Below, piece after piece: positions 15,015-42,850 of a stretch of 64,000 nucleotides of DNA. Origin of the DNA: Gammaproteobacteria bacterium (GTDB taxonomy: Bacteria; Pseudomonadota; Gammaproteobacteria; JBCCGL01). The position numbers were made by a program, and so were the translations under genes. The DNA lies in assembly GCA_965277715.1 (NCBI GenBank), contig OZ255836.1, forward strand, positions 416,001 to 480,000, written 5' to 3'. Under the pieces are notes generated by a model that saw only the letters and a program-made list of their open reading frames with translations, searched no databases and was not told where the DNA came from. The first letter of the stretch is position 1; each line of letters begins with the position of its first letter.

Positions 15015-15495
15015 TTGGCCCGAGAGAATTATATTCTGTACAACTCGGCGAGTGATTTAGCGTTACCGCGTTTAGGGCAACGGCTACCGAGAACGGTACT
15101 GACACCGAGGGAAGTGGAACAGGTTATGGGGCAAGTGGACGTCAGTACAGCGCAGGGCATCCGAGGTCGAGCGATCCTGGAGACGTTATACAGTACGGGT
15201 TTGCGGTGTTCGGAGTTGGCGAATCTGGGGCTTTGGGATATAGACGCAGCGCGTGGCACGGTATTGGTGAGAGAGGGAAAGGGGAATAAAGACCGTATAG
15301 TGCCGATAGGGGAAAGCGCGTTGTACTGGGTACGTCGTTATCGCGATGAAGTGCGTGCGGGGCTTGTGATTGTTGAGAGAGAGGAAACTTTATTCCTGTC
15401 AGCGTATAGTCGAGGATTTAAAGGGAATGTGCTATCGGCTTTGGTGGGTGGTTATGTTGATTGCGCGAAGTTAGGCAAGCGGGGCAGTTGCCATG
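15015..15495 (+). pseudogene. Truncated XerC/D-like tyrosine recombinase
   Basis: AILETLYSTGLRCSEL, GKGNKDRIVP, ends at GSCH just before HxxRH would complete; cut by IS66 remnant. Confidence 0.85.
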
Positions 15496-15862
15496 TTAGC
15501 AGAGGTAATGCCAGAAATGACGCTACCATTGGCCAGCTTAAAACACAAACCCGGATCACCCCTTTGAGTGTCGGCCACCACGATATTAGCAAAGCCTGCC
15601 AAAGGGGTTTTATTCTGTCTTGATTGAATAGTTTTACGGGAACATTTACGGTGCCAATAGTAAAACTGCTTCAAGTTGATGCCGTTATCCTGGCAAAACT
15701 GCGCACCACTCAAACCGGATGCTTGCCATTGTTCAATTTGATTGCGCCAGTACGACGCACGTTCTTTATTGCTCATATTACACCTAGCGGGTATTGGGTT
15801 GCTGTGGTGCAGTGTGAAGGGCGATCAGAGTAATTGGTAGACGCCTATTCTTTGGCGCTTAC
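15493..15862 (-). mobile_element. IS66 remnant (left end plus truncated tnpA)
   Basis: Near-copy of ~40912-41284, ends in GGCGCTTAC (GTAAGCGCC terminal repeat); tnpA start at 15776. Confidence 0.88.
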
Positions 15863-15937
15863 GTTTGTTCTGAATCATTTTATATTTTCGAATATTGCGA
15901 ATATAATAGCGTTATTCAAAATACTGAGTTCTCCTAT

Positions 15938-24263: not shown

Positions 24264-25037
24264 ATGCCATCAAAACTAAACTGGTTACTCAGCAATACAA
24301 TGCCCGGTACACTCGTACTTCAAGCGTGGTTGAGTAAACATGGCATCAGCCCCTCACTTACCCAAAAATATGCCGCCAGCAATTGGCTGCAAAAAAGACG
24401 GGCGGGTGTGTATACCCGCACCGGCCGCTCGTCAGAATGGCTCGATGCGGTTCATTGCCTGCAAACGCAATGCGCACTTTCGGTTCACTTGGCCGGTATT
24501 TCCAGCCTGGCGTATCAAGGGCGCACGCATTACTTATCCCTGGGTGAGGAAACGGTATGGTTGGCACTGGAAGAAAAGGTGCACCTGCCCGCCTGGTTCA
24601 TGTACTTTGCCGACGAGCAATGGTATCGAATATCCAACGTCAAACTGACGCACTTTACTGAAGAGGACTTCTGCCACTTAACGATAAAACATACCGAAAT
24701 AAAGGCGAGTAATATGGAGCTGGCGGCTCTGGAAACGCTCGCCACAGTGTCAAATTCATTGTCGTTTGAACATGCGGCAAAGTTGTTCCAGGGTTTGGTC
24801 AACCTCAGCCCAATTAAGGTTCAGTCGCTGTTGGAGCGAAGCCGCTCTGTGCAAGTCAACCGATTGTTTCTATTTTTTGCCCACTACTACAAACACGCAT
24901 GGTTGAGCCGACTGGACGAAAGTAAAATAAATATCGGTTCGGGTAAACGGCAAATTGTCAAAGGCGGCAAGCTGGAGAAGCGCTATCAGATTACCGTGCC
25001 GGAAAATTACGCTAAAGATACAATAAACGGTGGATAA
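24264..25037 (+). CDS. Type IV TA antitoxin AbiEi
   Basis: SKLNWLL, GRTHYL, SVQVNRLFLFFA, GSGKRQIVKGG...YQITVP. Confidence 0.87.
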   Translation: MPSKLNWLLSNTMPGTLVLQAWLSKHGISPSLTQKYAASNWLQKRRAGVYTRTGRSSEWLDAVHCLQTQCALSVHLAGISSLAYQGRTHYLSLGEETVWLALEEKVHLPAWFMYFADEQWYRISNVKLTHFTEEDFCHLTIKHTEIKASNMELAALETLATVSNSLSFEHAAKLFQGLVNLSPIKVQSLLERSRSVQVNRLFLFFAHYYKHAWLSRLDESKINIGSGKRQIVKGGKLEKRYQITVPENYAKDTINGG

Positions 25038-25944
25038 AAACTCTTCACATTACAAGCAAGTTTCACTGCTGGTGCAAACACTCCCCTATATTGCGCGGGA
25101 GTCTTGTTTCGCCCTCAAAGGTGGCACGGCAATTAACTTATTTGTCCGGGATTTTCCACGATTATCCGTGGATATAGATCTGGTCTACCTGCCGTTTGAA
25201 CCGAGGGATAGTGCGCTAGTGCATATTAAGGAGGGGCTGCGGAGAATTAGCGATCAACTTAACCAGCAACTTGCACTATCGGCGGTGCTGCAAGATGTCA
25301 AACCTGACGAAATGCGCATTATTGTTGAATCCAGTGAAGCACAAATAAAGATTGAAGTTTCCCCTGTAGCTAGAGGCACACTTTACCCACCGGTAGCAAT
25401 GGATATTGTCAAATCTGCTGAAAGGGAGTTTGGGTTTGCCTCCCTGCCTGTCGTCTCTATGGCCGACTTATATGGCGGAAAACTGTGTGCTGCTTTGGAT
25501 AGGCAACACCCCAGAGACTTATTTGATATCAAGTTATTGCTTGAGGCGACGGGTGTTGAACGGGACGTATTTGACGGGTTCATTACCTATGCGCTTTGTC
25601 ATAGCAGGCCAATAGCGGAAATATTCGCCCCGAATTGGCGGGATATAAGCGAGGATTTTTATAGCTAATTTTACGGAATGGCGAAGCAGGCAATAACGGC
25701 GAAAGAATTGGCTGACGTACCCTTCCAAATGCTCAAGGCGTTGAAGGCAAATTTTACTCCGAGGGATCACCACTTTATAATGTCGTTCAAAAGTGGAAAA
25801 CCCGACTGGGAGTATGCGCCGAATGAACGTATCTAAGATTTACCTGCTATAAAGTGAAAACTAATGAATATTCAAAAAATGCCTGCGGATAAGCACCAAA
25901 AACCGGTAGAAAAACTGAAAATGGTATTGGATACATGGCTGTGA
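25030..25944 (+). pseudogene. Type IV TA toxin AbiEii with three nonsense codons
   Basis: FALKGGTAINLF...RLSVDIDL, DRQHPRDLFD; in-frame stops at 25666, 25834, 25855; frame continues to TGA 25944. Confidence 0.87.
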
Positions 25945-26818: not shown

Positions 26819-26887
26819 GGGAATATAAAGCGCGAATTCAAGTAGTAAGTGCAATTCCTTCTAAATTAACGGTACAAATTGTTTATG

Positions 26888-27693
26888 ATAAAAGGGTCAA
26901 GTATACTATTGCATAATTTTGGTGTACTGCTATACTCCTTAAATGCCAAGACCTCTACGCATAGAGTATGAAAACGCCTACTACCACGTAACGTACCGAT
27001 GCACCGTTATTGCAGAGGCGTTACAAAGCGATCTGCATTGAAGAAAATAGTTATCAGCTTCAACTCTCTCGCTATATTCACCGAAACCCGCTGGAAGCTA
27101 GGTTAGTAAAGAATTTGGCGGATTACCCCTGGTCCAGTTACAACGATTATGCAAATGGTCGTTCATCACAGGAGTGGCTTTACCAGGGGGATATCCAGGC
27201 TCAGCTCGGTGTGCCTCATCAGCGGTATTTTGCGCAACGATACTGAGTTTATGTGGAGCAAGGCATTGATGAAGAAATCAGGCGATTCTACGGACGGGGA
27301 AATCAAATGCCTTATTTGGGCAGTGAGGATTTCCGCAGTTGGGCCTACGAGCAACGTGAAACTATAGATAGTGCAGTTAACCGTAGTGACTTACAGCAGT
27401 TTAGACCTATGGTAGGTGAATGGATTATTCGGGTGTCGAAATCGTTGAAGATTGAGCGTGAAGATATCCTCCGACCGTCAAGGGGAGGGTTGAAAGCGAA
27501 AGTAGCGAGAGATTTATGTATGTACCTGTGTCGAGAAGAGGGTGGGCATAAGTTGGTAGATATTGCCGAAGTCTTCGGTTTCAAGCGATACGGTAGTGTA
27601 TCAACAGCTATTAGGCACTTTTAAACTCAATTGGCAGGTGATTTAACGTTGCAAAAATTACTTAAAAAACTTATATGATACATGACCCTTTTA
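26888..27693 (+). mobile_element. Y1/RAYT-like transposase element copy 1 (defective)
   Basis: Near-identical to copy 2 but lacks about 224 bp including the HYH motif and has stops at 27244 and 27622; ends ATAAAAGGGTCAAGTA and TACATGACCCTTTTA. Confidence 0.88.
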
Positions 27694-27734
27694 CTGATAG
27701 AAGGGGTGGTTCTCGGAGGGGGGGCTGTGATTAG
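27684..27734 (+). other. Start-less toxin-tail-like ORF 2 (DPFTDRRGGSRRGGCD*)
   Basis: Open from TGACCC in the Asp-Pro frame; stop overlaps GTG at 27727. Confidence 0.45.
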
Positions 27735-28092
27735 AAATTTTCTTGTTGTATTTTTTTTAATTATATTATATTCATTTTCATTGTTTTTTTCGGAATTAAT
27801 TTTTTGGTTTTACGCAATAATTAGCCCTATAATAGTTAGTACTCTGGGATATAGTGCCTTATTGCTATCTCCTATAGTGAAAAGATTTATCCTCTCATTT
27901 GTGCCTTTAGTATCACTGCCAGTTACAGTATTTTTTCCAAATTTAGAAAATAACCAAATAATTATCTTTTTACATTTTTTTGTAATTGGTTTTGCTTTAA
28001 CTCAATTGTATGAGGCAACTTTGTGGATTTTTGAGTTGGTTTTTTCTATTTTTATAAAAATAAAAAACCACGTTCTTAGAACGTGGTTTTGA
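27727..28092 (+). CDS. Small multi-TM hypothetical protein, immunity-like
   Basis: Very AT-rich hydrophobic ORF; GTG start overlapping tail 2. Confidence 0.6.
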   Translation: MIRNFLVVFFLIILYSFSLFFSELIFWFYAIISPIIVSTLGYSALLLSPIVKRFILSFVPLVSLPVTVFFPNLENNQIIIFLHFFVIGFALTQLYEATLWIFELVFSIFIKIKNHVLRTWF

Positions 28093-28394
28093 CTTCATAG
28101 TATTTTGGGTTTTCAAAGAGCTTTCTTATTTGTGAGAAAAGCCGTATTGGGATAACCAGCTTTAGATGAAAGGGGTATTGTGTAGGTGCAGCAGGAGTGG
28201 GAGCAGAGATAATACGGGGTATCAAGAGAAAGTGGAAAGAAGCTTAGAACTAAATTTTTAGATCTATTTATAGCCGAAGCGCGATGACGGGTAGCCTGTC
28301 TTCTATGAAAGCTGGCTTTATACGCTCTTCTAGAGCGTGAATTTTTACTTAAACCATTGTTACTATCGATGATGACTAGCTGGTGAATTTAATT

Positions 28395-28859
28395 ATGCAT
28401 AATTTTCATTATATTTTTTATTTGTTACTTTTTATATTCGCAATTATAGGTCTTTTATTTCAAATTAAATTAAAACGTTTATTACTTGAAAAAGAGAAAA
28501 TTTTCTGTGAATCGATTTCTTTAACAAATAGTTTTCTAACAGATAGTCCAAGAGCGTCATGGAAATTTTTGATGCTGATAGTTTTTGATACTAATAGAGA
28601 ATCTTTATCAAATGGTGAAGTTCTAGTTAAATTGAAAAAGGCGAAAATATTTTTTTATATATACATTGTAATTTTTTTTATCTACGTGGCTTTTTTTTTA
28701 GCTGTGGCGAGCGGTGTTTGTCAAGGTAATTGTGGCGTGCCATTTTCTGATCGTATAAATTCCCAAATTATCGATCATAATATTTTTCAGCTTTCCAACG
28801 TTTTTGCCACACTCTGTGTCATAACAAAAAATATTTTTACCATCACTGCTGTCTCGTGA
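28395..28859 (+). CDS. Two-TM hypothetical protein (3' end probably read-through into repeat)
   Basis: AT-rich ORF with two hydrophobic segments; the last ~40 codons run through the 50-bp repeat. Confidence 0.55.
   Translation: MHNFHYIFYLLLFIFAIIGLLFQIKLKRLLLEKEKIFCESISLTNSFLTDSPRASWKFLMLIVFDTNRESLSNGEVLVKLKKAKIFFYIYIVIFFIYVAFFLAVASGVCQGNCGVPFSDRINSQIIDHNIFQLSNVFATLCVITKNIFTITAVS
28731..28780 (+). repeat. 50-bp repeat, copy 2
   Basis: TGTGGCGTGCCATTTTCTGATCGTATAAATTCCCAAATTATCGATCATAA. Confidence 0.9.
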
Positions 28860-28882
28860 AGATAAAGGGGCCAAGAATAAGA

Positions 28883-29917
28883 AAATAAAGGGGTCAAGTA
28901 TACTATTGCATAATTTTGGTGTGCTGCTATACTCCTCAAATGCCAAGACCTCTACGCATAGAGTACGAAAATGCCTACTATCACGTAATGAACCGAGGTA
29001 GGGGAAGGCAGCGTATATTTCCTGACGATGAGTACTACTCGCTTTTTCTTGAACTCCTTGCGCAGGCTTATAGACGTTTTGGCCTACAGGTTCTTTGCTA
29101 TTGCTTGATGAGTAACCACTATCACTTATTGGTGAAGACACCGGAAGCTAATTTGGGACGGTGTATGCGGCACATCAATGGGCTTTATACACAGCGGTAC
29201 AATAAACAGAAACGTACCGATGGGCCGTTATTTCAGGGGCGTTACAAAGCGATCTGCATTGAAGAAGATAGCTATCAGCTTCAACTCTCTCGCTATATTC
29301 ATCGAAACCCATTGGAAGCCAGGTTAGTAAAGGATTTGGCAGATTACCCTTGGTCCAGTTACAACGATTATGCAAATGGTCGTTCATCACAGGAGTGGCT
29401 TTACCAGGGGGATATCCAGGCTCAGCTCGGTGTGCCTCATCAGCGGTATTTTGCGCAACGATACCGGGCTTATGTGGAGCAAGGCATTGATGAAGAAATC
29501 AGGCGATTCTACGGACGGGGAAATCAAATGCCTTATTTGGGCAGTGAGGATTTCCGCAGTTGGGCCTACGAGCAACGTGAAACTATAGATAGTGCAGTTA
29601 ACCGTAGTGACTTACAGCAGTTTAGACCTACGGTAGATGAATGGATTATTCGGGTGTCGAAATCGTTGAAGATTGAGCGTGAAGATATCCTCCGACCATC
29701 AAGGGGAGAGTTGAAAGCGAAAGTAGCGAGAGATTTATGTATGTACCTGTGTCGGGAAGAGGGTGGGCATAAGTTGGTAGATATTGCCGAAGTCTTCGGT
29801 TTCAAGCGATATGGTAGTGTATCAACAGCTATTAGGCACTTTGAAACTCAATTGGCAGGTGATTTAACGTTACAAAAATTACTTAAAAAACTTATATGGT
29901 ACTTGACCCCTTTATTT
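28883..29917 (+). mobile_element. Y1/RAYT-like transposase element copy 2 (intact) with perfect 18-bp inverted ends
   Basis: AAATAAAGGGGTCAAGTA at 28883-28900 and TACTTGACCCCTTTATTT at 29900-29917. Confidence 0.9.
28906..28933 (+). promoter_or_regulatory. Sigma70-like promoter of the Y1 transposase (likely leaderless mRNA)
   Basis: TTGCAT-16 nt-TATACT with TGn extension, 6 nt before the ATG, no RBS; present in all three copies. Confidence 0.55.
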
Positions 29918-29923
29918 ATGTAA
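28940..29923 (+). CDS. HUH Y1 (RAYT-like) transposase with C-terminal DnaA-like HTH
   Basis: YHVMNRG, MSNHYHLL (HUH), FQGRYK, RYIHRNP (catalytic Y), YPWSSY; C-terminal ARDLCMYLCR...DIAEVFG...SVSTA. Confidence 0.9.
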   Translation: MPRPLRIEYENAYYHVMNRGRGRQRIFPDDEYYSLFLELLAQAYRRFGLQVLCYCLMSNHYHLLVKTPEANLGRCMRHINGLYTQRYNKQKRTDGPLFQGRYKAICIEEDSYQLQLSRYIHRNPLEARLVKDLADYPWSSYNDYANGRSSQEWLYQGDIQAQLGVPHQRYFAQRYRAYVEQGIDEEIRRFYGRGNQMPYLGSEDFRSWAYEQRETIDSAVNRSDLQQFRPTVDEWIIRVSKSLKIEREDILRPSRGELKAKVARDLCMYLCREEGGHKLVDIAEVFGFKRYGSVSTAIRHFETQLAGDLTLQKLLKKLIWYLTPLFM

Positions 29924-30075
29924 AAACAGTTGATGAAGCACCTGCTTTGGCTCTTGGTGTGACCCGTGCACGTAATTTTACTAAATTGTCTGTTACAAAT
30001 TTTGGTAAGTTATCAATTGCGGCTGAAGTTTTATCCGATATAGATCGAGGTTATGAGGCTTATTTCGGTGATTAA
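29905..30075 (+). other. Start-less toxin-tail-like ORF 3 (DPFIYVK...AYFGD*, 56 aa)
   Basis: 56 open codons in AT-rich DNA in the Asp-Pro frame of TGACCCC, no ATG; stop 38 nt before the next gene. Confidence 0.55.
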
Positions 30076-30113
30076 AGAGAGATGAGTTCGATAGTTTTTA
30101 ATTAAAATTATTT

Positions 30114-30581
30114 ATGAAATATACAATTTCTAAAAAATATATAAAGCGAGTAAAAAGAAGTCCTGTCTCCTATACAGTATTAGGGGTGGTATTAGGTAGT
30201 ATTCCACTTTTAGGCAAGGAAGTTCCTGTATATATAGGTGTATCTGTCACTATTAGTGTCGCTATCTTAATGGGAGGGGCTCGCTGGCTTTGGGTGAAAA
30301 AGCGAGTTAAGTTATATTATGAGCATAAACTTGAGGTGTCTCAAGGGAATTTAACCCTTGAAAATGAGGGAATGAAATCAACGTTACAATTATCTTTTGT
30401 GCATAAAATTATATTATATAAAAAAGGAAATTCTGTACATTTAATAGCTATTGAGAACACTAAAGGTTATAAAGAATGGTTATATCAATATGAAAATATG
30501 AGTGAATTGGCTGATAGTTTACAAAAATATGTTCCACTAGAAAAGATTAAAGTGAAAAGTTGGCTTTATTTATATTTGTAG
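30114..30581 (+). CDS. Two-TM hypothetical protein, immunity-like
   Basis: AT-rich 155-aa ORF following tail 3. Confidence 0.65.
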   Translation: MKYTISKKYIKRVKRSPVSYTVLGVVLGSIPLLGKEVPVYIGVSVTISVAILMGGARWLWVKKRVKLYYEHKLEVSQGNLTLENEGMKSTLQLSFVHKIILYKKGNSVHLIAIENTKGYKEWLYQYENMSELADSLQKYVPLEKIKVKSWLYLYL

Positions 30582-30638
30582 TATAACACTGCTGTCCCGT
30601 TAAGAAGAGATAAGGAGGCCTGATAAAGGAAGATAAAG

Positions 30639-30793
30639 AAATAAAGGGGTCAAGTATACTATTGCATGATTTTGGTGTGCTGCTATACTCCTTAAATGCC
30701 AAGACCTCTACGCATAGAGTATGAAAACGCCTACTACCACGTAATGAACCGAGGTAGGGGAAGACAGCGTATATTTCCTGGCGATGAGTACTA
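30639..30793 (+). mobile_element. Y1/RAYT-like element copy 3 (left end plus first ~32 codons)
   Basis: AAATAAAGGGGTCAAGTA at 30639; similarity to copy 2 ends at GATGAGTACTA. Confidence 0.88.
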
Positions 30794-31464
30794 TTAAAAA
30801 CACTGCCGGGTGTAGGGCCTCTGGTCGCCACTACCTTGTTTACAGCAATGGGCGATCCGGGTTTTTATAAAAACGGGCGTGAGTTTTCCGCCTTTTTAGG
30901 TCTCGTTCCTCGTCAATATAGTTCGGGGGGCAAAACACAACTCAAAGGTATCAGTAAACGCGGGGACGAACACGTGCGCACTTTGTTGATACAGGGGGCG
31001 CAAGCGGCATTAAGTCGAATGCCTAAACACGATGATGGGCTAAGTCGTTGGGCCTGTCGTGTCAAAGCACGTCGGGGCCATTGTGTGGCGGCGGTGGCAT
31101 TGGCCAATAAGCTCGCCAGAATTAGCTGGGCGGTAGCGGCTAATAATACAACTTACGCGCATAAAACAGCTTAATAACGTCGTTGGATATTTCTTACCAC
31201 GAGGTAGCGAAAGAGCAGTAAAGGGTATAACAGGTTAAACCGGCTCAGACAGAACCTGGAGGGGTCATGGTCTTCACAGACCGATTGCTTGATGAGGTGT
31301 CTGAGCACGGTTCCCATTATGGCTCTGGACGGATAAACAAATACAATCCGTCCTATCGAGAAGCCGGATATATGACTGCTAACCTTATTTACTGTGACTG
31401 CACTGAACGCTAAAAAATGAATGAACGATTAAAAAATTGTTGAATTTAACTGCGGGTCCATATA
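30794..31464 (+). mobile_element. IS110-family (IS1111-type) remnant: transposase 3' part plus non-coding right end
   Basis: TLPGVGP, FKNGR-like YKNGREFSAFLGLVPRQYSSGGK, AVALANKLARI (stop 31174); about 290-bp 3' non-coding region ending GGTCCATATA. Confidence 0.87.
31230..31380 (+). ncRNA. Putative IS1111 seekRNA/bridge-type RNA
   Basis: Stem GCTCAGACA/TGTCTGAGC enclosing an internal loop with GGGGTCA and TTGCTTGA around a GGTC-TTCACA-GACC hairpin; boundaries approximate. Confidence 0.6.
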
Positions 31465-31509
31465 TGACCCCTTTATACTGGCTACACCAAACTGCGCCAA
31501 GATATAATC

Positions 31510-31681
31510 TACGCTAAAGATACGACAAACGATGGATAAAAACTCCTCATACTACAAGCAAATTTCACTGCCAGTGCAAACACTCCTCTATATTGCGCGG
31601 GAGTCTTGTTTCGCCCTCAAAGGTGGTACGGCAATGAACTTATTTGTCCGAGATTTTCCACGATTATCCGTGGATATAGAT
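31510..31681 (+). repeat. Diverged 172-bp duplicate of the abiEi/abiEii junction (25008-25179)
   Basis: TACGCTAAAGATAC...CCGTGGATATAGAT colinear with substitutions. Confidence 0.9.
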
Positions 31682-31911
31682 TATGACTAATATGTTTCTA
31701 TGAATGAGCAACATATCCCGTTTTCTCGCCAATTTGCTTCACCAACAGAGGAAATGCTTCGTGACCCTGAATATCTATCGATGTGTGGACACAAACTTGA
31801 CAAAACCCTCAGTTGGAAAGACATCTTGCAGGCCCTGTGTGTCAACCTCACCTCAAGCCACTATGATTTAAGTTAACATCTAAATCAGGGCAGCTATCGA
31901 GAGTGAGAACA

Positions 31912-32325
31912 ATGCCAAAACCAATGTTAGATAAACCACAACCTGAGTCATGTGAGATCAAGCCTGATCGGACACTTGAGAAAAAGACTCGCCGCACTTT
32001 TACAGCAGCCTATAAGCTAAAGATGATCAATCAAGCTGATGCTTGCCAGCATGGACAGCTTGGCGCTTTGCTACGCCGTGAGAAGCTTTACTCCAATCAA
32101 TTGTCTCAGTGGCGAAGAGAACTGGCCGAAGGCGGTTTGTCAGGGCTATCAAAAAGCGCGCCCGGCCCTGCACCGCAAATGACGTCTGAGCAGCGCCGGA
32201 TAGCGCAGCTTGAAAAACAAGTAAACCGTCTGGAAAAACAAATCGCCCTTAAGGATGACTGTCTGGAACTCCAAAAAAAAGCCTTGGCGATGCTCGACCG
32301 ATTGAACAGCGGGATCGAGCAGTGA
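31912..32325 (+). CDS. IS3-family OrfA
   Basis: RRTFTAAYKL HTH, LLRREKLYS, coiled coil. Confidence 0.85.
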   Translation: MPKPMLDKPQPESCEIKPDRTLEKKTRRTFTAAYKLKMINQADACQHGQLGALLRREKLYSNQLSQWRRELAEGGLSGLSKSAPGPAPQMTSEQRRIAQLEKQVNRLEKQIALKDDCLELQKKALAMLDRLNSGIEQ

Positions 32326-33401
32326 ATACCGCGTTGACTGACCGCCCACCCTCAGTGTCCCAACGTCTGGCTTGTAAGGTATTGGCATTGTCACGGTCAC
32401 ACGTCCGGGCCAAGCAAAGCCGCCGCCATTTCTGTGGCCCTCCCAAACCAGCAGGAACCGTGCGAATCACTTGCCATCAGCCACGCCAACTGAGTGAAGA
32501 AGAATGCTCTGTGGTATTGAATACGCTCAATAGTGAAGCGTTCTATGATCAACCACCGGCGCAGGTTTACCATACCTTGCTGAGTCGCCGTATTTACCTC
32601 TGCTCCATCAGCACCATGCACCGCCTGCTGCGTCAGTCCGATCAGTCGGGGGAACGCCGAAAACAGCGTCCTGGGCAAACCAACGCAGTGCCAAGGCTTT
32701 CGGCCAGTCAGCCTAATGAGGTCTGGACATGGGATATTACAAAATTGGCCACCGTTAAGCGCGGCGTTTATTTATCGCTCTATGTGGTGATGGATTTATT
32801 CAGTCGCTACATCGTGGCCTGGATGCTTTCCCATAAAGAAAACAGTGCACTGGCACAGCAGCTCATTCAGGAGGCCAGTACACGTTACGCGATTAGACCC
32901 GACCAGCTGACGCTGCATCAGGATCGAGGGGCACCGATGACCGCACATTGCTACCTTGACTTACTGGGCGAGTTGGCGGTCACCGCTAGCCACAGCAGAC
33001 CCCGCGTGAGTAATGACAATCCTCATAGTGAAAGCCAATTTCGAACACTGAAGTATCAGCCTGACTACCCGCGTCGCTTTGATAGCTATAGCCATGCCAA
33101 TGGATGGTGCACTGAGTATATTGATTGGTATAACCATCAGCACTGTCACAGTGCGTTGGAGGGCTTCACACCTTGTCAGGTGTTTACTGGGCAGTACATA
33201 CCACTCAGTGAGGTTCGTCAGCAGGCACTCAATGAAAAGTATGTCCAACATGCAGAGCGATTTGTCAATCAGCGGCCTGTTGTCAGGATGCCGCCTGCGA
33301 AGGTCTACATTAATCCCGTGCGCGATGAACTGGGTAATATAGATCACGATGCACCCGTCAACTTCCCAACACTAAATCGGGCTAAATATATGGTAACTTG
33401 A
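32322..33401 (+). CDS. IS3-family OrfB DDE transposase
   Basis: WTWDIT, HQDRG, SNDNPHSESQF integrase core. Confidence 0.88.
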   Translation: MNTALTDRPPSVSQRLACKVLALSRSHVRAKQSRRHFCGPPKPAGTVRITCHQPRQLSEEECSVVLNTLNSEAFYDQPPAQVYHTLLSRRIYLCSISTMHRLLRQSDQSGERRKQRPGQTNAVPRLSASQPNEVWTWDITKLATVKRGVYLSLYVVMDLFSRYIVAWMLSHKENSALAQQLIQEASTRYAIRPDQLTLHQDRGAPMTAHCYLDLLGELAVTASHSRPRVSNDNPHSESQFRTLKYQPDYPRRFDSYSHANGWCTEYIDWYNHQHCHSALEGFTPCQVFTGQYIPLSEVRQQALNEKYVQHAERFVNQRPVVRMPPAKVYINPVRDELGNIDHDAPVNFPTLNRAKYMVT

Positions 33402-40883: not shown

Positions 40884-41197
40884 AACTGCGCCAGTAACGC
40901 GCTAACTAACGTCACGTTAGCGGCGGTAATGCCAGAAATGGCACAGCCATTGGCCAGCGTAAAACACAAACCTGAATCAGCCCTTTGCCTATCAGCCACC
41001 ATCACTTGGGTAAAGCCTGCTACAGGCATGTTACTCTGCACTGCTTGAATAGTTTTACGCGAACATTTACGGCTCCAATAGTAAAACTGCTTCAAGTGGA
41101 TGCCGTTATCCTGGCAAAACTGCGCACCACTCAAACCGGATGCTTGCCATTGTTCAATTTGATTGCGCCAGTACGACGCGCGTTCTTTATTACTCAT
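40880..41197 (-). CDS. IS66 accessory protein TnpA
   Basis: WQASGLSGAQFC...FYYW HTH. Confidence 0.9.
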   Translation of the reverse strand: MSNKERASYWRNQIEQWQASGLSGAQFCQDNGIHLKQFYYWSRKCSRKTIQAVQSNMPVAGFTQVMVADRQRADSGLCFTLANGCAISGITAANVTLVSALLAQL

Positions 41198-41330
41198 ATT
41201 ACACCTATGCGGGTATTGGGTTGATGTGGTGCAGTGTGAGGACCAACCCGAGTAATTGGTAGACGCCTATTCTTTGGCGCTTACGTACTAACGACCATCA
41301 ATTAGCACTTGCCTCCTCTATATCTCCTGT

Positions 41331-41630: not shown

Positions 41631-41683
41631 AATGGTTTCCTCTTCGGTATGTTTAACCACCAAAGAGGTCTCAATCTCCAATT

Positions 41684-41759
41684 GGTGGCAAGCCAACAGG
41701 GTTGAGACTACCGGCCCAAAGAACGGCCCACCTAAAGGCGGCCCCGTTGACCTGCCATA
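41684..41759 (-). ncRNA. C4 antisense RNA (P1/P7 c4, P4 CI-like)
   Basis: TATGGCAGGTCAAC...GTTGGCTTGCCACC closing stem with GTCTCAA, complementary to TTGAGAC sites on both sides (41814-41820, 41668-41674). Confidence 0.75.
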
Positions 41760-41851
41760 ACAATAAACTCGACTAAAAGGCATCTATCCGCCTTTTAATC
41801 GCTTCGAGCCAGGGTCTCAATCCTGACACCGGATTTTGCCGATGCCAACAC

Positions 41852-42773: not shown

Positions 42774-42850
42774 TGGTAGGCGCGGAGGAACTCGAATCCC
42801 CGACCCCCACCATGTCAAGGTGGTGCTCTAACCAACTGAGCTACGCGCCT
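42774..42850 (-). tRNA. tRNA-Val(GAC)
   Basis: AGGCGCGTAGCTCAGTTGGTTAGAGCACCACCTTGACATGGTGG...TTCGAG...CGCGCCTACCA cloverleaf. Confidence 0.96.

Follow-up and report, generated by a model that had tools for sequence, protein, structure and literature searches.

At positions 30794 to 31464 of a 64,000-nucleotide stretch of gammaproteobacterial DNA, the whole of which is referred to here as the window, the end of an IS1111-type insertion sequence (IS) is joined directly to the terminal inverted repeat (TIR) of an element encoding a Y1 transposase. The junction raises the question of whether the IS was directed to this repeat by an RNA encoded in its own non-coding end, as had been proposed from the letters alone (the sequence-only reading). 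The question was addressed by defining what remains of the IS and of the Y1 element, by modelling the non-coding region as RNA, and by comparing guide segments with flanking DNA across relatives of the IS. The parts of the IS remnant and of Y1 copies 2 and 3 are given on the plus strand.

The IS remnant and the Y1 element beside it

The IS at 30794-31464 is a 3' remnant, in which 126 transposase codons are followed by 290 nt of non-coding sequence ending in the right subterminal repeat. The codons and their stop (30794-31174) encode the C-terminus, residues 216-341 of about 341, of an IS110/IS1111-family transposase. The ORF fragment at 30797-31174 matches Pfam PF02371 (Transposase_20) with an E value of 1.5e-22 and contains the GL-P----S/TG motif of that domain in the form GLVPRQYSSGG, scores 137 bits with NCBIfam transpos_IS110 (cut-off 140), and aligns with residues 216-341 of the 341-aa metagenomic transposase P0001 at 81 % identity. 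These matches, together with the end structure of the family, bear out the assignment of the element to IS1111 in the sequence-only reading; its description as a whole IS has to be given up, as homology to an intact Y1 element extends to 30793 and the transposase frame then follows from residue 216. No DEDD (RuvC-like) N-terminal domain was found in the window. Since the frame starts at residue 216 and full-length relatives carry both PF01548 and PF02371, the window is without the catalytic N-terminal domain and the left end of the IS, and since the missing domain was lost by deletion, the copy is a remnant of an IS1111 member and not a working member. It is a dead fragment, and an ordinary member of a known RNA-guided family.

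The non-coding region (31175-31464) lies downstream of tnp, as does the same region in relatives, and encodes the putative guide (seek/bridge) RNA; a long non-coding region in this position is given as typical of IS1111 in the account of PMC11187229. IS1111 elements have subterminal inverted repeats 11-13 bp long, beyond which the element extends by 7 bp on the left and 3 bp on the right. In the window, the right subterminal inverted repeat GCGGGTCCAT and a 3-bp terminal extension, ATA, form the IS right end (31452-31464) and align with the ends of relatives, whereas the left end is deleted. The aligned right ends of the relatives diverge directly after CCAT plus 3 bp, in keeping with the 3-bp right extension described as the rule for IS1111 (PMC11187229); a right extension of CCAT-NNA form is present in 133 of 135 relatives with both ends defined, and a left extension of NAATGNN form in most of them. 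The last base of GGTCCATATA is 31464 and TGACCCCTTTAT follows directly at 31465-31476, which is where the junction had been placed from the sequence alone.

Both covariance models described below found no second IS copy in the 64-kb window, and an exact 20-mer of the IS right end had no match in the genome contigs. Transposase proteins at 70-82 % identity to the fragment exist, and DNA scans with the fragment, the alignment and P0049 as queries gave relatives at about 61 % identity or less among the matches listed. The 17-mer CCATATATGACCCCTTT gave 69 matches in the genome contigs, approximately the chance number by our estimate, about 12 of which were judged by eye to be true IS ends; the RNA module lay within reach in 5 of 20 loci chosen from these matches.

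The segment TGACCCCTTTAT at 31465-31476 is the outer 12 nt of the 16-nt right TIR of a truncated Y1 element, copy 3, and forms the right half of the IS target. It is identical to 29904-29915 and to the reverse complements of 28885-28896 and 30641-30652, and the window has six occurrences of it with at most one mismatch, where 0.25 would be expected, a count reached in none of 100 shuffles. The 7-mer TGACCCC by itself shows no enrichment, with 7 occurrences in the window for an expected 6.5. Copy 2 of the Y1 element is intact (28885-29923), with a left TIR ATAAAGGGGTCAAGTA (28885-28900), a TIRYT gene (28940-29923) and a right TIR TACTTGACCCCTTTAT (29900-29915) that overlaps the 3' end of the gene, and it carries the target TACT|TGACCCC uninterrupted. 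The left part of copy 3 (30641-30793) is made up of the left TIR (30641-30656) and the first 33 codons (ATG at 30696), is 94 % identical to copy 2 over 161 nt, and ends where the IS transposase frame begins.

The protein of the Y1 element contains the domains Y1_Tnp (PF01797, E 2e-13) and Bac_DnaA_C (PF08299, E 5.4e-8), and scores 75.8 bits with NCBIfam REP_Tyr_transpos, just below the cut-off of 80. Its TIR holds GGGGTCAA, which agrees with GGGGWSAS at 7 of 8 positions. TIRYTs are described as Y1 enzymes similar to RAYTs whose tail is of DnaA-C-like or HTH type, and TIRtrons as TIRYT genes between terminal inverted repeats that often contain GGGGWSAS (PMC6006769, PMC3733652). Because both the protein domains and the repeats match the published TIRYTs, the element belongs to this described family and is a TIRtron with a TIRYT transposase. 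The sequence-only reading had named the target the recombination site of a cassette system; that it is a Y1 terminal repeat stands, and it is better named the TIR of a TIRtron. As in the descriptions of Di Nocera et al. 2013 (PMC3733652) and Quentin et al. 2018 (PMC6006769, subclass 2.1.2), a Y1 HUH domain is combined with a C-terminal Bac_DnaA_C-like domain, the inverted repeats contain GGGGTCAA, and the right repeat overlaps the 3' end of the gene; the window differs from the TIRtrons described there in having three tandem copies with small membrane-protein ORFs between them.

The tandem array occupies 26884-31476. Only copy 2 is intact; copy 1 (about 26945-27660) carries stops and an internal deletion, and copy 3 is truncated. 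The small predicted membrane-protein ORFs between the copies (27682-28092, 28383-28859 and 30114-30581) had no Pfam match, and an additional degenerate repeat unit lies at 28862-28873.

The RNA module and its guide segments

The region 31175-31470 (296 nt, comprising the non-coding region and 6 nt of flank) gave a folding z score of -5.1, and its minimum-energy fold contains an outer stem, 31243-31251 with 31298-31306, exactly where the sequence-only reading had drawn it, together with an inner hairpin and a large internal loop. For covariance modelling, transposase relatives were taken from metagenome and genome contigs (about 44-61 % identity, among the matches listed), and the equivalent regions of 32 of them were aligned with that of the window as model R1. 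Covariation of the two helices in this alignment was 0.555, whereas shuffles gave 0.187 and sliding the partners gave no more than 0.167. R1 scored 71 bits on the window and gave 95 matches in 100 loci, and 88 in 99 loci, of the relatives. Model R2 was built from the 95 matches with the window left out; covariation in these 95 sequences was 0.675 compared with 0.172 in shuffles, and R2 recovered 31235-31316 of the window with 64 bits (E 6.5e-17). A search of the region against Rfam gave no family at gathering score, and noise alone at E values up to 10. The fold and covariance check proposed for this region thus came out in favour of a guide RNA module in the 3' non-coding region. On these models, the stem-loop at 31235-31316 is the target-binding module of an IS1111-type guide RNA, with an outer stem (31240-31251 with 31298-31310) and an inner hairpin (31269-31273 with 31278-31282) as placed by the covariance models.

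The internal loop holds two candidate guides. The top-strand (5') guide GAGGGGTCA (31259-31267) is complementary to the right flank TGACCCCT(T) at 8 of 9 positions, or at all 9 if a G.T wobble is allowed, a comparison that uses window sequence only; the loop segment to which the sequence-only reading had drawn attention, AGGGGTCAT, is present at 31260-31268. The bottom-strand (3') guide TTGCTTGA lies downstream of it (31285-31292), in the same position as the 3' guide of relatives, and predicts a left flank of TTGCT followed by TGA. These last three bases are nearly constant in the family and are covered by both guides. This is the order of IS1111 seekRNAs according to PMC11187229, the top-strand match coming first in the 5' to 3' direction, then the bottom-strand match, with an overlap of both at the insertion point.

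Whether such segments act as guides can be judged from how well they fit the flanks of the elements that carry them. All 183 model hits were used, guides being read from fixed model positions independently of any match, and element ends being set from the subterminal repeats alone (the right end at CAT plus 3 bp, the left end 7 bp before ATG, with at least 10 of 12 repeat positions paired). Both ends and enough flank were available for 144 hits, 135 of which were non-redundant; removal of rows containing N or of a size outside 1300-1700 bp left 131, with 118 distinct guide pairs. The 5' guide fitted its own right flank at 7 or more of 9 positions in 86 of the 118 pairs, compared with 2.05 % of non-cognate pairs, the remaining 32 falling below 7 of 9, and 8 or more of 9 was reached by 0.34 % of non-cognate pairs. 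The 3' guide fitted its own left flank at 4 or more of 5 positions in 105 of 118, compared with 3.35 % of non-cognate pairs; 13 cognate pairs had 3 of 5 or fewer, and 3 or more of 5 was reached by 15.2 % of non-cognate pairs. Because cognate matches lie so far above non-cognate ones, the loop segments of this family are, on comparative grounds, guides that differ with the target, covarying with the flanks of the elements that carry them. The sequence-only reading had named a loop that is invariant among homologs with different targets as the observation that would speak against it; the loops vary among the 118 guide pairs.

For the window itself the two halves differ in strength. With 8 of 9 positions matched against 0.34 % of non-cognate pairs, the right-half match is solid, and the proposal that the 5' segment of the loop guides the element to the Y1 TIR stands. 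With its left junction gone, the copy shows no left flank of its own; TTGCT matches the inferred left half GTACT at 3 of 5 positions, which is no better than chance. The likeness of TTGCTTGA to the TACTTGA half of the target, which had also been pointed out, therefore holds as regards its position, and beyond the constant TGA amounts to the 3 of 5 that 15.2 % of non-cognate pairs attain. Allowing wobble raises the score to 4 of 5, a value found for 27 of 118 cognate pairs and equalled or exceeded by 11 % of non-cognate pairs. The left-half resemblance is weak and by itself no evidence. A joint score of at least 8 for the top-strand guide and at least 3 for the bottom-strand guide was found in 34 of 13806 non-cognate pairs, and a 14-mer made from both guides met the TIRs of the window only at 3 mismatches, where 5 sites were found against 4.9 expected.

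A second, donor-side loop was recognized by inspection of relatives at 31311-31374, with a 5' segment TTCCCATTA (31311-31319), a hairpin (31327-31334 with 31346-31353) and a 3' segment ATATATG (31368-31374). The 3' segment corresponds to the element right end plus two bases, a 7-mer agreement seen in 101 of 116 relatives compared with 2.4 % of non-cognate 7-mers, and the 5' segment is complementary to the start of the left end in 59 of 116 relatives compared with 10 %. Sought downstream of the module as a perfect complement to the 7-bp left extension, the loop gave no match; the shifted definition worked. In 109 of 116 elements (L003-L248; T/T in 85, C/C in 23, A/A in 1) the left end begins with the same base that directly follows the right end, and the 3' segments of both loops follow this shared base, an arrangement that fits a single shared 'core' base at the crossover.

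Relatives at TIRYT repeats in other genomes

The sequence-only reading had also named insertion of other copies at sites other than TGACCCC as an observation that would speak against it. Of the relatives closest in this stretch of DNA among the matches listed, most adjoin TGACCCC (L286, L248, L167 and seven copies in the metagenome-assembled genome (MAG) G001), the exception being L247, a remnant whose flank does not fit its own guide. Among the 118 guide pairs, right flanks start with TGACCCC in 6 and with TG[AT]CCC in 12. Relatives share the TGACCCC flank because they sit in TIRYT repeats: when resident TIRYT genes were checked, three of four other genomes with a TGACCC-flanked IS had IS1111 relatives at the same position of the TIR, and GGGGTCAG is found in the repeats of TIRtron relatives in G001, G027 and G244-G247.

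In Gilvimarinus agarilyticus JEA5 (G244) one IS lies inside the left TIR of a TIRYT gene, in the order GGGGTCA, reversed IS, AGTCTTGAATTGTGA and gene, and a second (L103) lies in the right TIR of another TIRYT copy; the 3' guide is AGACTTGA. The fit of TIR to IS guide is 8 of 8 in one case and 7 of 8 in the other, so one mismatch is tolerated. The TIR of the resident TIRYT gene in G246 and in G247 equals the IS left flank plus TGACCCC; of G245, two resident repeats were seen, neither of which matches the IS flank. All seven related IS copies of G001 lie at AGCTGG(C/T)|TGACCCC, and this genome has eight uninterrupted AGCTGGCTGACCCC sites compared with none for the reversed control. The TIRYT genes of G001 and G027 are flanked by GGGGTCAGGTCT..., and the right TIR in G027 shares 16 identical nt with the left flank of L006. 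A Competibacteraceae MAG contains ACTTGACCCCTTTAT uninterrupted as well as IS copies with the 3' guide CGACTTGA. The remnant L286, shorter than that of the window and 69 % identical to it over 194 nt, adjoins TGACCCCTTTAA and has ATTGCTC-TGA at the 3' guide position. When three Y1 proteins were compared by tblastn with the IS loci up to L248, Y1 sequence was found beside the IS only in L006 and L089, most flanks being too short.

Three further arrangements were noted among these loci. At L250 (positions 1500-2414; G001:C6) two inverted copies of the target repeat (ATCAAGCTGGCTGACCCC...) surround a 189-aa membrane-type ORF, with no Y1 gene, and a stub resembling the IS right end lies beside AAGGGGTCA between the two repeats; the unit could be repeat-bounded cargo like the inter-element ORFs of the window. 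At L324 (about 1960-2020), CCATATA|TGACCCCTTTAT stands 5 nt after an uninterrupted ACTTGACCCCTTTAT, with the rest of the IS missing, which may be a stub left by IS loss or a native repeat arrangement. L257 (2340-2500; G001:C38) has three tandem copies of a TIRYT element's right end (ATGCTATAAAGATAGACCTGACCC, spaced by 76 and 50 nt).

Origin of the junction and comparison with known systems

The history that we consider very probable is that an IS1111-type IS inserted at TACT|TGACCCC in the right TIR of the Y1 (TIRYT) element with its own 3' RNA as guide, and that a deletion followed. The RNA, transcribed from the 3' non-coding region in a two-loop layout, would pair through the 5' segment of its first loop with the top strand of the right flank and through the 3' segment with the bottom strand of the left flank and the first bases of the right flank, while the second loop would match the ends of the element itself. 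The subsequent deletion would have removed the remaining Y1 gene, the left junction and the first 215 transposase codons. The present order, left TIR, 5' end of the Y1 gene, 3' part of the IS and outer 12 nt of the right TIR, is explained by one internal deletion after insertion. In this account the original left junction, the deletion history, the production of the RNA and its binding by the transposase are what we infer. The remnant is immobile by itself, and its RNA could act only with a transposase from another copy.

It is possible, though we hold it for the lesser alternative, that the guide was meant for a variant of the repeat with TTGCT or GCTC as its left half and TGACCCC as its right half, the IS having landed off-target in a look-alike repeat or the guide having drifted after the element died. 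The 3 of 5 fit of the 3' guide agrees with this, as does L286, whose ATTGCTC-TGA lies beside a repeat unit GGGGTCAGAGCCC that on the complementary strand gives GGCTC|TGACCCC; the mismatch tolerated in G244 also points to some latitude in landing. Against it, the flank agrees with the local TIR in the right half and in four more bases, the left half attains with wobble the 4 of 5 seen in a good number of cognate pairs, and the search with the 14-mer of both guides found no better-fitting site in the window. The complementarity between loop and flank might, in turn, be a coincidence, with TGACCCC belonging to the IS end or reflecting a preference of the enzyme; the chance-level frequency of the 7-mer in the window and its presence beside several unrelated-looking relatives would allow for this. 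The ends of the relatives, however, diverge directly after CCAT plus 3 bp, and so few non-cognate pairs reach 8 of 9 that we regard coincidence as extremely unlikely.

A different kind of explanation dispenses with insertion at this place: the remnant and its flank would have been moved beside the Y1 fragment by recombination or deletion between repeat copies, and the local junction would then be uninformative on targeting by the copy in the window. The region is indeed heavily rearranged: it has three Y1 copies, of which one is degenerate, a second copy of part of AbiEii (31510-31681) and, starting at 31903, an IS3-type element. The IS end is nevertheless still joined to half of a Y1 TIR, which requires insertion in some copy of the repeat, and one internal deletion already accounts for the observed order, so that relocation appears improbable.

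The RNA-guided recombination of IS110/IS1111 elements is already known and the copy in the window is dead, and the locus itself is accordingly ordinary. Its likeness to the seekRNA elements ISEc11, ISPa11, ISKpn4 and ISPst6 described by Siddiquee et al. 2024 (PMC11187229) extends to PF02371, the long non-coding region downstream of tnp, the subterminal inverted repeat with a 3-bp right extension, and a top-strand match 5' of a bottom-strand match with overlap in the target. The targets described there are a short linear site, attC sites and REP, whereas the target here is the TIR of a TIRYT Y1 element, and the window copy is a remnant. The bridge RNA of IS621/IS110 (Durrant et al. 2024, PMC11208160) likewise has two internal loops, one for the target and one for the element's own ends, and in the same report 93 % of IS1111 elements are predicted to carry a bridge RNA in their right end; the IS621 RNA differs in lying in the left end with the order of the guides reversed (PMC11187229). 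Other IS also land in repeats of mobile elements (PMC12288879, PMC8450116), namely IS4321/IS5075 in the inverted repeats of the Tn21 family, and ISPa11, ISPpu9, ISPpu10 and IS621 in REP. They resemble the present case in that they insert at a specific site and in one orientation, and in that the short repeat which they enter is owned or mobilized by a different transposase. The RAYT Y1 enzymes, whose partner repeats are the REP sequences, are related to the TIRYT in the window; the repeat in the window is a GGGGWSAS-type TIRtron TIR, unlike a GTAG-tagged REP or a Tn3-family end. No link between IS110/IS1111 and TIRYT repeats was found in the papers searched; such sites may already be listed in the supplementary target tables of PMC11187229 and PMC11208160. 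The text of PMC3733652 contains neither IS110 nor IS1111, and the TIRtron passages of PMC6006769 likewise make no mention of IS110/IS1111 insertions.

What is added here is the target class, the terminal repeats of TIRYT Y1 elements, struck at the same base in several unrelated genomes. The guide-target pairs also provide a comparative set for guide re-programming and a marker for TIRtron repeats. We lean slightly towards a broader reading, in which a widespread IS1111 lineage is parasitic on TIRYT/TIRtron elements, keeping a GGGGUCA-type guide for the conserved GGGGWSAS tip of their terminal repeats and having its second guide re-programmed for the repeat of each host; the second guides observed include AGACC/AGACT, GAGTC, CTGGC, CGACT and TTGCT. 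If so, nature would offer a series of guides re-programmed on a single target family, from which it could be seen how such RNAs track a moving target, and TIRtron ends would be accessible, recurrent landing pads across many Proteobacteria.

Several features of the wider window were also recorded. An AbiEi-like/AbiEii gene pair is located at 24264-25668, and a second copy of the AbiEii 5' end with its upstream region (31510-31681, 92 % identical, cut off at 31681) follows the IS remnant; the IS3-type element, with HTH_Tnp_1 and rve ORFs, extends from 31903 to 33401. Direct repeats of about 373 nt (87-91 % identity; 15492-15864 and 40913-41286), 25.4 kb apart, bracket conjugation-like genes, the Y1 array and the IS remnants, and could mark the two ends of an integrated element. 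Beyond the second repeat lie a match to C4 antisense RNA (41681-41762) and a tRNA (42777-42850).
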